Shown: positions 3,001 through 9,000 of the stretch, piece after piece
Numbering within the stretch: position 1 is the first letter of the stretch
Layout of the letters: the number at the start of each line of letters is the position of its first letter
Virus record (IMG/VR): IMGVR_UViG_2541047874_000003
DNA length: 54,334 nucleotides
Direction: 5' to 3' (one strand)
DNA from: a virus
Lineage: Duplodnaviria; Heunggongvirae; Uroviricota; Caudoviricetes
Program-made: the position numbers

Positions 3001-6000
3001 GCCGGAATTTCATGAAATCCCGGGAGGTAAACGGGCATTTCAGTTCAAGGCCGTTGCCGTCACTGCATAAACCATCGGGAGAGCAGGCGGTGCGCATACT
3101 TTCGTCGCGATAGATGATCGGGGATTCAGTAATATTCACGCCGGAAGTGAATTCAAACAGGGTTCTGGCGTCGTTCTCGTACTGTTTTCCCCAGGCCAGC
3201 GCCTTAGCATTAACTTCCGGAGCCACACCGGTGCAAACCTCAGCCAGCAGGGTGTGGAAGTAGGACCTTTTCATGTCAGGCCACTTCTTTCCTGAGCGGG
3301 GCTTTGCTATCACGTTGTGAACTTCTGAAGCGGTGATGACGCCGAGCCGTAATTTGTGCCATGCATCATCCCCCTGTTCGACAGCTCTCACGTCGATCCC
3401 GGTACGCTGCAGGATAATGTCCGGTGTCATGCTGCCACCTTCTGCTCAGTGGCTTTCTGTTTCAGGAATCCAAGAGCTTTCACTGCTTCGGCTTGTGTCA
3501 GTTCTGACGATGCGCGAATGTCGCGGCGAAATATCTGGGAACAGAGCGGCAATAAGTCGTCATCCCATGTTTTATCCAGGGCTATCAGCAGAGTGTTAAT
3601 CTCCTGCATGGTTTCATCGTTAACCGGAGTGATGTCGCGTTCCGGCTGACGTTCTGCAGTGTATGCGGTATTTTCGACAATGCGCTCGGCTTCATCCTTG
3701 TCATAGATACCCGCAAATCCGAAGGCCAGACGGGCACACTGAATCATGGCTTTATGCCGTAACATCCGTTTGGGATGCGACTGCCACGGTCCGGTGATTT
3801 CTCTGCCTTCGCGGGTTTTGAATGGTTCGCGGCGGCATTCATCCATCCACTCGGTAACGCAGATCGGATGATTACGGTCTTTGCGGTAAATCCGGCATGT
3901 ACAGGATTCATTGTCCTGCTCAAAGTCCATGCCATCAAACTGCTGGTTTTCATTGATGATGCGGGACCAGCCATCAACGCCCACCACCGGAACGATGCCG
4001 TTCTGCTTATCAGGGAAGGCGTAAATTTCTTTCGTCCACGGATTAAGGCCGTACTGGTTGGCGACGATCAACAATGCGATGAACTGCGCATCGCTGGCAT
4101 CACCTTTAAATGCCGTCTGGCGAAGAGTGGTGATCAGTTCCAGTGGGTCGACAGAATCCATGCCGACACGTTCAGCCAGCTTCCCTGCCAGCGTTGCGAG
4201 TGCTGTACTCATCCGTTTTATACCTCTGAATCAATATCAACCTGATGGTGAGCAATGGTTTCAACCATGTACCGGATGTGTTCTGCCATGCGCTCCTGAA
4301 ACTCAACATCGTCATCAAACGCACGGGTAATGGCTTTTTTGCTGGCCCCGTGGCGTTGCAAATGATCGATGCATAGCGATTCAAACAGGTGCTGGGGCAG
4401 GCCTTTTTCCATGTCGTCTGCCAGTTCTGCCTCTTTCTCTTCACGGGCGATCTGCTGGTAGTGACGCGCCCAGCTCTGAGCCTCAAGACGATCCTGAATG
4501 TAATAAGCGTTCATGGCTGAACTCCTGAAAATAGCTGTGAAAATATCGCCCGCGAAATGCCAGGCTGATTAGGAAAACAGGAAAGGGGATTAGTGATTCA
4601 GGCCGTTACCGCGTCCGTCGAGAAAAACTTCCACGAGCAAATCACTGGTATAAGTGCGCTCGATGCCGCGATGCAGATAAAGCCGTCCGCGTAAATTAGC
4701 TGATGCAGTCCAGGTACCATCTTTGTGTTTGACCAGCATTCCTGGCATGACCGCACCTCGATTAACGGTCTGCGTTCCATAATGTTGATGAACCATAAAA
4801 ACTCCTGCCCGTAAGCTGGGCTGCTGAACATATAGAGACTTCTGCGCGTATTCAGGCGGTGGATGGCCGCCGGTTGTCATAACTAAGCCGCCTCGTTGAA
4901 GCGACTAAGGTATGAAATGTTGAGTTAATTTCAGCTGGTCACACCGACGTTCACGCGTCCGTTTCACCCCTCGCACTCCCCGAAGCCTGCTGAAATTCAA
5001 ACTGCGGATCTAAGCGGTCATCGCAACGGTGAATCAGGTAGTTGCCGTATCGTTGTGTTGTTGCGATGAACTTATTTAAAACTATAGTTGTTTTATCGTC
5101 AACAACAAAAGTTGTTTTATTGGTTGTTTTAGATATAACTGGTTGTATTTAGGATGGATTTATTTTGTGACTTGCATCGCACAGCGATAACTGAAGCGAG
5201 GTCGTGGTGGTTTTTTGAACGGTTTGTGTGATGAGGGGAGGCAAAAGAAAACCCGGCACGGTGGCCGGGTTATTAATAAGGAATATCACATACAAAAATA
5301 AATTTTAAACTTGGGGAAGTATTTTTTTTGCAAAATCAATAGTTTCTTTGTGGTTGGATGCAGGTATATGATTTATTTTCTTAGCATCCATAGTTCTCTT
5401 TATGATGTCAATAACTTTGCTTTGGCCTGAGTTTGGTGATTCAGGAGTTTCAATTGTGAATAAAATGTCATCAAGTGAAAGCAGGTTTTCTTCTGCTGCT
5501 CGAGTTATTCTCATCACCCAAGTATCACTATGCTCCATCATTTTTCCTGGTTCAGCTTGAGTGAATGCCAGAGGTTTGATGGCACATTGGATCCTGTCAT
5601 GCTTCTTGGCGACCAATGGCATTGAGAACTTTGCGAAATACCCATCAATGGTTGCTTGTTTGAAGACGTTCTTCAATCCATCTATTCTATCGATACTTCG
5701 TTTTAGCTCTCTGGCTAGAACATCTTCACGGCGCTCTTTTGTGTAGTCAGAGTGGTTTACATATTTATTGTAAATGCGGGCCAGCTCTTCTTTTGGGTTT
5801 TCGCTGAGAATCACTCTCGTAGAACTGAACTGAAAAATTGATTCTTTTTTGTTTGTAAAATATCTGAAGAATTGTGCAAGTTGTTGATGTCCAACAATCT
5901 GGGTCGCATGCATTTTTGCGAACTGTAGTTCTCTTTGTATTGAGTCTTTTGCTACAGGGAAAATACAATCATCATGGAAAAAATTCTTTACACGAGAGTC

Positions 6001-9000
6001 ATTTCGCTTTGTGAGCTGGAAATCAAAGTAATTTTCTTTTGGCGCGCACAGAAGTACGCCTATGTTTGCGAACTCTTCAGTCTCCGCATAAGGCGCATAG
6101 CGAACGATGCTATATAGGCATGGAGTTGTCATTCTATTGCGCTCCAAAATTCATCACAATCACCTTTGTCTAGCGTAGTGCAGACAAAAGGTAAAAACTC
6201 CTCATCTACTATCCACTCTTCTGGAATTTCGTCAAGGATAGCAGGAAGCTTGTGTAAACTGTTAACGACCCTCTGGCGGTACTCTACGCGATCCACTAAA
6301 TCATATTGCCATTTGCGGTTACCAGGGCCGTACACGTGCACAGAAAAATCTTCAGGTCCAGCATTCTGATCAAATGAGAGATTATGGTCAATCAGATAAT
6401 ACTTATCGTTACTGATGTCATAAAGGATGTTAACGTTTCCACCTTTGTCAGTAAGCGTTCTGTCTGCATTTAATATCCATTTATCAAAAACATAGATTAA
6501 TTTTTGCTGTTCGACTGGGATGATCGTTTCGTTTCTTGACTGCGTAAACGTTAACGCTATTGCACCGTCAATGAACAATGAAGCAAAGGCATATCCTGTA
6601 CAAATTTGTTGCTGCAGATCAGGTGAGTACTCTATAAGTTCCTCTGGCACAAATACGATTTTAAAGTCAGGTAAAGGAAGGCCGATATCATTAGCCAAAC
6701 ACGCCGAAATGAACTCAGCTAAGAGATTTTTCGGGGGCATTGATGGTTTTGACTTCAAAAGATACAACTGCCCATCATCACATTTGCAAAGAAATGGCTG
6801 AGTGGAACCTTCATTGATGCGACGTATTACCTCAACGACATTAGGTATTGCACTATTGCTGCTCGCTACGCACTCCATCACTAACCCTTATGTGATTCAA
6901 GTCTTCCATCTCATTACTCCGCATCTCAAAGAGCGGTTTAACACTGCGTGTTTAAAGAAAAACAACAGGCCTATTGCTGTAACTGTTTTTTAGCCTCACT
7001 TTAACCATGCTTCCTATATGTCTGAGGCATACTCCCAATAACTTTCCCAAAGATGAACACTCGGTTCATCTCGTCTTTCTCGATCGGATCCCACGGTGAG
7101 TAGCTCTTGTTATCAGAGATAACCAGCAGCTTATCCTTCATCATTTGCAGGCGCTTTACATGGGCAGTGTCGTCGTACAGAAACGCATAGATACCATCAC
7201 CGTCGAAAGATTTAACAGTGATATCAACGAACAGCAGATCACCTGGTTCGATCGTTCCTGACATGCTGTCACCGCGTACGTTAATGATGCGGATATTTTC
7301 TGCCTTCCTGCCATCGAACATGTGACGAGCATCGTCAAACGAGTACTCAACCGAGCGTAGGACTTCTACAAACTCACGGTTGATGACACCCGGCCCAGCA
7401 CTGACTTCTATATCAAGAACGTCAATCTTGAAGTATTTGGAATGGCTGACAGTTGATTGTATTGGTTGCACTGTACTGTCTGACATATTTCCAACGCCAG
7501 AAGATAACCATTCTGCGCGCACACCCAAAGCGTTCGCGATCTCCACGATTTTAGTTGTTTGATTAGCTTTCCCTGTTTCGATTTTCTGAATAGCAGCCTG
7601 GCTAACCCCGACCAAATCCCCAAGCGCCTTTTGTGTAAGGCCTCGCGCTAATCTGGCTTCTTTAAGTCTTTCTGAGAGTGTTGTTTTCATAGTCCAAATG
7701 TACAACCAAGGTTTTATTCCATCAAACGAAAATGGTTGTTGACTAAAAACAACCATAGTTTTAATCTTGATTCAAATTAACCACGGAGGTTGTTATGAAC
7801 CCAGCTATCAAAACAGCGATCAATATCGTTGGTTCACAAAAGAAACTGGGCGCTGCTTGCGAAGTTTCACAGCAGGCCGTCTATAAGTGGCTTCACAACA
7901 AAGCAAAGGTATCCCCTGAACATGTCGGCAGCATTGTTACGGCTACTGGTGGAGTAGTGAAGGCATACCAGATTCGCCCGGATCTTCCGAAGTTGTTTCC
8001 ACACACCGAAAAGAACGCAGCTTAAATTTCCATTTCACGCTCTTTAACAATAAGCAATCAACTTAACAGTCAATTCAAACTAAAGGAGTCAATTATGCAA
8101 CCACTTACATACCAACAGACTAGCGGATTTAGCCCGACTGCGGTGATAAATCGTTCTCAAACAAAACAGGTGCCAGGCCACGAAAAAATCCGTGATGCCG
8201 TCCGCGCCTGGTCGGCTGTAGATAATCAGGATGTCGTTGCCACACTCATTGTGAATGAGTATCGGGAGCAGGGCGGCGGCACCATCGATTTCCCTGATGA
8301 TGTCAGCCGTGCACGCCAGAAGCTGTTCCGCTTCCTCGATAACAAATTCGATTCTGAAAAATACCGAAATAACGTGCGTGAACTGACCCCGGCAATTCTG
8401 GCGGTACTACCGCTGGAATATCGCGGTTACCTGGTTGAGCAGGATAGCTTCATGGCTAGGTTGGCTGAAATGGAAAAGGAACTCAGTGAGGCAAAACAGG
8501 CTGTCATTCTCAACGCACCACGCCACCAGAAACTGAAGGAAATTAGTGAAGGTATTGTGTCGATGTTTCGTGTGGCCCCAGATCTGGCTGGTCCATTGAT
8601 GGCGATGGTTACTACCATGCTGGGGGCGATATGACAGGTTCAGAAATGGCGAAAGCCGGTCTGCTGGAACAGAACCGACTTTCAGGTGCAAATCGTAACA
8701 CACTCATTGCGGGAGGAATTATGGCAAACACTGCTGAGATATTCAATTTTCCAGTGCCGGATGCGGCACAAAAGGAGCCGCGCGTGGCAGATCTCGATGA
8801 TGGTTATACGCGCATTGCAAATGAGTTGCTGGAAGCTGTAATGCTGGCCGGATTAACACAGCACCAGCTTCTGGTCTTCCTGGCTGTCATGCGCAAAACA
8901 TATGGCTTTAATAAAAAACTGGATTGGGTGAGCAACGAGCAACTTTCCGAGTTGACCGGGATATTGCCGCACAAGTGTTCTGCTGCAAAAAGCGTTCTGG

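Follow-up and report, generated by a model that had tools for sequence, protein, structure and literature searches.

Localization of a gene pair beside the repressor gene

The DNA analysed in the present study, IMG/VR virus record IMGVR_UViG_2541047874_000003 (Caudoviricetes; 54,334 nucleotides, referred to throughout as the window), carries on its minus strand two adjoining genes, hipA and hipD, which lie between a cI-type repressor gene and the OL/PL region, i.e. in the position occupied by rexA and rexB in phage lambda, as a preliminary description made from the raw sequence had placed them. That description had reported two overlapping open reading frames (ORFs) at 6129..6881 and 5305..6147, and our ORF list gave exactly these, each in its longest possible form, the first encoding 250 amino acids from a GTG start and the second 280 amino acids from a TTG start. 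These longest ORFs are, however, not the likely genes, and we prefer the ATG starts used by the homologues: hipA would begin at ATG 6878, with AAGGG just 5′ of it, and encode 249 amino acids, and hipD would begin at ATG 6132 and encode 275 amino acids; both starts agree with the GenBank/RefSeq homologues, including the annotations of identical loci, and with the published proteins. With these starts the hipA stop codon TGA and the hipD ATG share the nucleotides ATGA when the sequence is read directly, so that the overlap is one of 4 nt and not the 19 bp first described, a figure that arose because the longest ORFs had been chosen. The suggestion that the two genes are coupled survives this correction, as an ATGA overlap is a classic sign of translational coupling.

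Identity with HipAD/DS-6

Comparison with published proteins clearly placed the pair in a system that is already known. HipD is identical at 275 of 275 positions with DS-6B (WP_000210934.1; sequence from the supplementary table), and HipA is identical with DS-6A (WP_000389051.1) at 248 of 249, the only difference being V40L. DS-6 is a validated two-protein defence system from the DefensePredictor paper (Science 2026, PMC13092281), which recounts that it was given the name HipAD once Brenes & Laub (Cell Host Microbe 33:1004, 2025) had discovered it independently. Because the proteins are this close to the cloned and tested DS-6, we regard the pair, on sequence grounds, as a member of HipAD/DS-6 and not as a new discovery, and the earlier view of an undescribed and uncharacterized pairing gives way to this assignment by homology search. 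In addition, Escherichia phage PhiR5_1 (PV340545.1) has 99.8% DNA identity over the whole locus, and its genes are annotated ‘HipA toxin’ and ‘HipD antitoxin’.

The published plaque data give a −log efficiency of plating for phage Bas1 of 5.18 with wild-type DS-6 compared with 0.88 for the D139A mutant, i.e. protection is lost upon mutation of the Asp of the ‘NADR’ motif (PMC13092281). The expectation of a lysogen-carried anti-phage or toxin-type system is thus borne out through the match to DS-6, with approximately 5 logs of protection against Bas1 that depend on D139. The clone for which this protection has been published encodes the identical HipD and a HipA that differs from that of the window by V40L alone. 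The same authors obtained an AlphaFold3 model of the DS-6 A–B complex with an interface predicted template modelling score (ipTM) of 0.76–0.79, and they prefer a toxin–antitoxin, abortive model (PMC13092281). A homologous HipA-like/DUF3037 pair in the Retron-Sda1 operon defends against phage Bas51 without the retron parts; deletion of its kinase abolishes this defence, and deletion of its DUF3037 gene is toxic (PMC12548924).

With the cloning of this pair, its activity against phage, the mutation of its catalytic Asp and its naming as HipAD/DS-6 all on record, there is little that is new in the finding, and our own additions are minor: the corrected starts and overlap, the boundaries of the cassette, its prevalence, the conservation of the coupling across phyla and the reading of one half of HipD as degenerate and nuclease-like. 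The locus nevertheless serves as a positive control, in that a reading of the raw sequence alone recovered a defence cassette together with its domains and catalytic motifs. The features of the locus are collected in Table 1.

Table 1 Features of the hipAD locus and its surroundings in the window
Feature	Position	Strand	Description and basis
hipA	6129..6878	-	249-amino-acid HipA-like (PF20613) Ser/Thr-type kinase, proposed toxin/effector
hipD	5305..6132	-	275-amino-acid proposed partner/antitoxin: N-terminal DUF3037 (approximately residues 1-126), linker helix and, at the C terminus, a putative restriction-endonuclease-like domain that lacks the canonical acidic catalytic residues
ATGA start/stop overlap of hipA and hipD	6129..6132	-	Sequence; same in loci L008-L014
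Intrinsic terminator, end of the putative cI-hipA-hipD unit	5240..5271	-	Terminator scan; conserved phage backbone, outside the cargo
cI-hipA gap	6879..7000	-	122 nt with AAGGG ribosome-binding site; sequence, terminator scan and fold test
cI-type repressor	7001..7756	-	HTH_3 + Peptidase_S24 (Pfam); likely true start is an internal ATG near 7690
OL operators and PL	5073..5145	-	Direct and inverted repeats matching OR sequences at 7721-7764; PL read from the sequence as TTGACG-N17-TTAAAT
Exchangeable cargo cassette	5270..7001		blastn break points against sister phages

HipA is a compact HipA-like kinase

HipA had been described as a HipA-family-like kinase on the strength of the motifs ‘NADR’ and ‘IDHN’, and this is well supported by its match with the Pfam family HipA_2 (PF20613, ‘HipA-like kinase’), which had an E-value of 2.2e-76 and a score of 256.7 bits (cut-off 27) over residues 15–248 and positions 1–239 of the 240 in the profile. 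The PADLOC model PDC-M66A also matched, with an E-value of 3e-14; the main text of the preprint from which the PADLOC models derive (Payne et al. 2024) makes no mention of HipA, M66 or DUF3037. An alignment of 44 HipA homologues showed residues K42, E55, N137, D139, R140, N148, I163, D164, H165 and N166 to be invariant; because of this invariance ‘NADR’, which lies with its D139 in the sequence ‘WILNADR’, and ‘IDHN’ are, as judged from the alignment, the conserved loops for catalysis and metal binding. The ATP-binding Lys, the catalytic Asp and the metal-binding Asp of the kinase fold are present as K42, D139 and D164 respectively.

An AlphaFold2 model of HipA had a predicted local distance difference test score of 89 and a predicted template modelling score of 0.88 and, when compared with the Protein Data Bank by Foldseek, matched PI4KII-alpha, Helicobacter pylori CtkA, the Shewanella and Escherichia coli HipA proteins and Legionella HipT with E-values of 1e-6 to 5e-4. 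The top match was PI4-kinase II-alpha (E-value 1e-6, template modelling score 0.60), and HipT (8ezr) was found with an E-value of 5e-4. The model thus confirmed a predicted compact kinase fold of the PI3/4K/HipA branch. Neither of the canonical HipA_C and HipA_N (Couple_hipA) domains was matched by HipA in Pfam at an E-value of 1 or below; of the family relationships looked for in Pfam and by structure, therefore, the HipA-like kinase family and the kinase fold were found and HipA_C was not. An NCBIfam scan returned no model that names HipA or HipD, the PHROG families to which the two proteins belong are all of ‘unknown function’, and no solved structure was matched by sequence below an E-value of 0.2 for either protein.

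HipD combines DUF3037 with a probable degenerate nuclease-like half

The second protein opens, as had been read from the sequence, with a DUF3037 domain (PF11236), which was matched with an E-value of 8e-24 and 84.6 bits (cut-off 22.6) over residues 12–130 of the long ORF and the complete profile (positions 1–118 of 118); PADLOC PDC-M66B matched with an E-value of 4e-16. From residue ~132 onwards HipD shows the order alpha, three beta strands, alpha, beta, which would fit a restriction-endonuclease fold, with modest fold scores and no Foldseek match below an E-value of 0.04. The positions at which the PD-(D/E)XK metal ligands would be expected read P172-[L/F]173 and A184-I185-K186 in all 61 homologues, and an acidic residue at 173 or 184 occurred in 0% of these. 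We therefore hold with moderate confidence that the C-terminal half is a degenerate, probably non-catalytic, nuclease-like domain, a reading that agrees with the contact between DS-6B and DNA suggested by AlphaFold3 in the DefensePredictor paper (ipTM 0.67; PMC13092281). When searched in isolation this half had no Pfam match at an E-value of 10 or below, and the published HHpred link to DUF1829 was not reproduced.

Other identities for HipD were considered and rejected. An equivalence of its N-terminal domain with HipS, HipB or the HipA N-subdomain was discarded, as no such fold matched, and no helix–turn–helix (HTH) family was matched in HipD. HipD was likewise rejected as an active nuclease in view of the missing acidic residues. 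For the same reason we consider it highly improbable that HipD is the effector and HipA its regulator, with the C-terminal domain of HipD cutting phage or host DNA once phosphorylated: besides the absence of the canonical acidic ligands from all 61 homologues and the modest fold scores, this arrangement predicts the opposite of what was seen in the Retron-Sda1 pair, where it is loss of the DUF3037 gene that is toxic and loss of the kinase that abolishes defence.

Transcription and the immunity region

The preliminary description had also placed a rho-independent terminator after the second gene, and the terminator scan found a strong intrinsic one there, with a stem of eight pairs at 5271..5250, six of them GC, followed by a T-tract. 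This terminator is part of the phage backbone, since blastn homology to the sister phages PhiR34_1 and PhiR47_2 continues through the hairpin as far as 5269. At the other end, the repressor gene (HTH_3, E-value 6.5e-13; Peptidase_S24, E-value 1.5e-18) is separated from hipA by a gap in which the scan detected no terminator-like hairpin, in which folding was no better than that of shuffled sequences (z +1.2), and in which no promoter reached the consensus threshold. With a strong terminator behind hipD and none behind cI, read-through from cI into hipA and hipD, and thus transcription of hipAD from PRM, is plausible.

Several features of the surrounding region were also apparent. The longest cI ORF starts at ATG 7756, which falls inside an operator-like palindrome (7732–7756); RefSeq homologues are annotated as a 690-nt gene from an internal ATG (MKTTLSERL...), and the GenBank record of PhiR5_1 has the long form. 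The real start of cI probably lies in the vicinity of 7690 and close to PRM, an arrangement like that of the leaderless lambda cI message. Between PL and the kil-like gene there is a leader of ~190 nt (4881–5072) with no ORF, and so none resembling an N-like antiterminator, no Rfam match and folding like that of shuffled sequences (z −0.33); indeed, no Rfam family was found anywhere in the window. The genes in the cro position (7795–8025; YdaS family, E-value 4e-17) and the cII position (8095–8634; YdaT family, E-value 8.5e-30) are labelled ‘toxins’ by Pfam, yet here take the places that cro and cII normally hold, in an immunity region of the Rac-like type.

hipAD occupies a cargo-exchange slot and is widely distributed

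The PL region and the repressor are common to the sister phages, which differ in what lies between the two. In PhiR34_1 the slot is empty and measures 122 bp (L006, 3892–4013), whereas in PhiR47_2 it holds the GevT/GevA toxin–antitoxin pair (L007, 3894–5395). As blastn homology with these two phages breaks at 5269, in the terminator hairpin, and at 7002, at the cI stop codon, the cassette is, by this comparison, a sharply bounded cargo-exchange slot extending from just inside the common terminator to the cI stop codon. The presence of another toxin–antitoxin pair in the same slot, together with the toxin–antitoxin-like architecture of hipAD itself, might suggest a pure addiction module that stabilizes the prophage and has no role in defence in its native context. 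We give this the slightest chance of the readings considered here, given the ~5 logs of protection conferred against Bas1 by the near-identical cloned pair, and the name HipAD itself comes from a study of prophage defence systems. Around the cassette the backbone is a mosaic: even IdasGreatGrand and PhiR5_1, the phage records with the best match, cover only 50–58% of the window's first 25 kb, with an identity of ~97.5%, and PhiR5_1 alone accounts for ~50% at 97.5%, against the 99.8% identity of its hipAD locus.

Among complete E. coli genomes hipAD was present in 284 of 5426 (~5%). Each of these genomes had one full-length copy, on the chromosome, and identity was at least 99% for 282 of the 284 copies; RefSeq labels the proteins ‘HipA family kinase’ and ‘DUF3037 domain-containing protein’. 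This prevalence matters for the prediction of host range in phage therapy. Two E. coli examples had the same exo-bet-gam-kil/hipD-hipA/repressor-cro-cII layout, the repressor in one of the two being a different allele, and the order cI, hipA, hipD was also found in Klebsiella phage Kp4864-1 (HipA 76% identical) and Salmonella phage SW-37 (42%), each of which has a different repressor. More distant pairs, with 24–55% identity, occur in Pseudomonas, Idiomarina, Sphingomonas and Yersinia, and in these the kinase gene still comes first and the 4-nt overlap is kept, the latter in seven distant loci (L008–L014). Since the order and the overlap are preserved in such differing contexts, the hipA_2/DUF3037 pair is, from its gene neighbourhoods, a self-contained mobile module. 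A survey of neighbourhoods for recurrence in prophage immunity regions and defence islands, as had been suggested, thus found the pair in the former (E. coli, Kp4864-1 and SW-37) and, beyond lambdoid regions, in a setting resembling the latter in Idiomarina.

Two of these neighbourhoods may be described further. The Idiomarina pair (L009/L010, 4273–10849) is beside an AAA_22/KAP-like NTPase gene, several unknown genes and an HNH gene, and looks like part of a defence island. The Yersinia pair (L013/L014, 325–5819) follows the genes for a P4-type primase (Toprim/D5_N) and DinI on their downstream side and has an IS110 transposase gene as its neighbour.

Proposed mechanism of hipAD

Given these results, we propose, with a probability of roughly 85%, that hipAD is a two-gene toxin–antitoxin-type kinase defence, which a lambdoid prophage carries as exchangeable cargo in the interval from cI to the terminator of its immunity region. 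The identity with a tested system, the kinase fold, the published defence and its loss in D139A, and the toxic effect of deleting the DUF3037 gene from a homologous pair all bear directly on this proposal. In the lysogen, hipA and hipD would most likely be expressed by extension of the cI transcript, with their translation coupled, and HipD would keep the HipA kinase inactive or harmless in uninfected cells; we infer this restraint, probably by direct binding of HipD to HipA, because loss of DUF3037 is toxic in the homologue and because a complex of the two proteins has been predicted. Infection by a sensitive phage would then free or activate HipA, which, via D139, may phosphorylate an essential target of the host or the phage and so stop phage production, with the probable outcome of an abortive infection at the cost of the infected cell.

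Several points weigh against this proposal. The toxicity of DUF3037 loss is a result from a homologue and not from the exact pair present here, and neither the DefensePredictor nor the retron paper reports a kinase substrate, a phage trigger or a measurement of abortive infection. In addition, DS-6 was protective from a plasmid that carried only its ‘predicted native promoter region’ and no cI (PMC13092281), from which it follows that hipAD may have a promoter of its own.

Should the kinase instead act directly on a phage protein or process, the result would be a non-abortive exclusion in which the infected cells live on and the main role of HipD is to tune or direct the kinase and not to hold a self-toxin in check. 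The range of sensitive phages, which appears narrow on the Bas1 data only, would suit such a mechanism, but in the homologous system deletion of the DUF3037 gene is toxic in the absence of phage, which argues that the kinase can harm the host on its own, and the DefensePredictor authors favour the toxin–antitoxin, abortive model; we therefore judge direct exclusion to be unlikely. Within the toxin–antitoxin-type reading, HipD might conceivably have a role beyond that of a passive antitoxin. Through its degenerate C-terminal domain it could sense nucleic acids, recognizing phage DNA as it enters the cell or replicates, or else a phage protein bound to DNA, and so release a PI4KII/CtkA-like kinase, possibly with a substrate other than the tRNA synthetases on which classical HipA toxins act. 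We offer this as a speculation about which we are doubtful; if true, it would represent a DNA-sensing kinase switch, a kind undescribed so far for Hip-type systems.

Comparison with known systems

The lysogen-expressed exclusion functions RexAB of lambda and Stk of prophage 933W are both encoded beside the repressor gene, and Stk, likewise a kinase, causes the infection by another phage to abort. Neither hipAD protein matched RexA/RexB or the eukaryotic-type kinase families in Pfam, PADLOC or PHROG (RexAB was also absent from the NCBIfam results), and what hipAD has in common with RexAB is only the genomic position and the logic of protecting the lysogen, the proteins being unrelated.

With the canonical HipBA system of E. 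coli K-12, in which the target of HipA is GltX, the pair shares the kinase superfamily and, on the proposed mechanism, the logic of a growth-arresting kinase with a restraining partner. However, the HipA of the window is a protein of 249 amino acids as opposed to ~440, has no HipA_C or HipA_N match and resembles the PI4KII-alpha and CtkA structures better than that of HipA. Moreover, the HTH protein HipB is encoded upstream of its toxin, whereas HipD is unrelated to HipB, is encoded downstream of the kinase and has no HTH match. Judged from the sequences, then, membership of canonical HipBA fails on the HipA_C/HipA_N domains, on the HTH antitoxin and on the gene order. HipBST is similar in combining a short HipA-type kinase with a neutralizing partner other than HipB, and HipT was among the fold matches of HipA, but HipBST has three genes compared with the two found here, and the fold searches linked HipD neither with HipS nor with the N-terminal subdomain of HipA.

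The PADLOC phage-defence candidate PDC-M66 (A/B) and the Retron-Sda1 pair consist of the same two families in the same order, with a kinase that is needed and a DUF3037 protein whose loss is toxic; they are distant relatives with moderate profile matches, and the Sda1 copy is beside a retron reverse transcriptase that is dispensable for defence. With HipAD/DS-6, finally, the pair shares the same proteins, the same gene order and the same overlap, as well as the prophage slot seen in PhiR5_1, and differs only in V40L of HipA and in the mosaic phage backbone in which it is carried.

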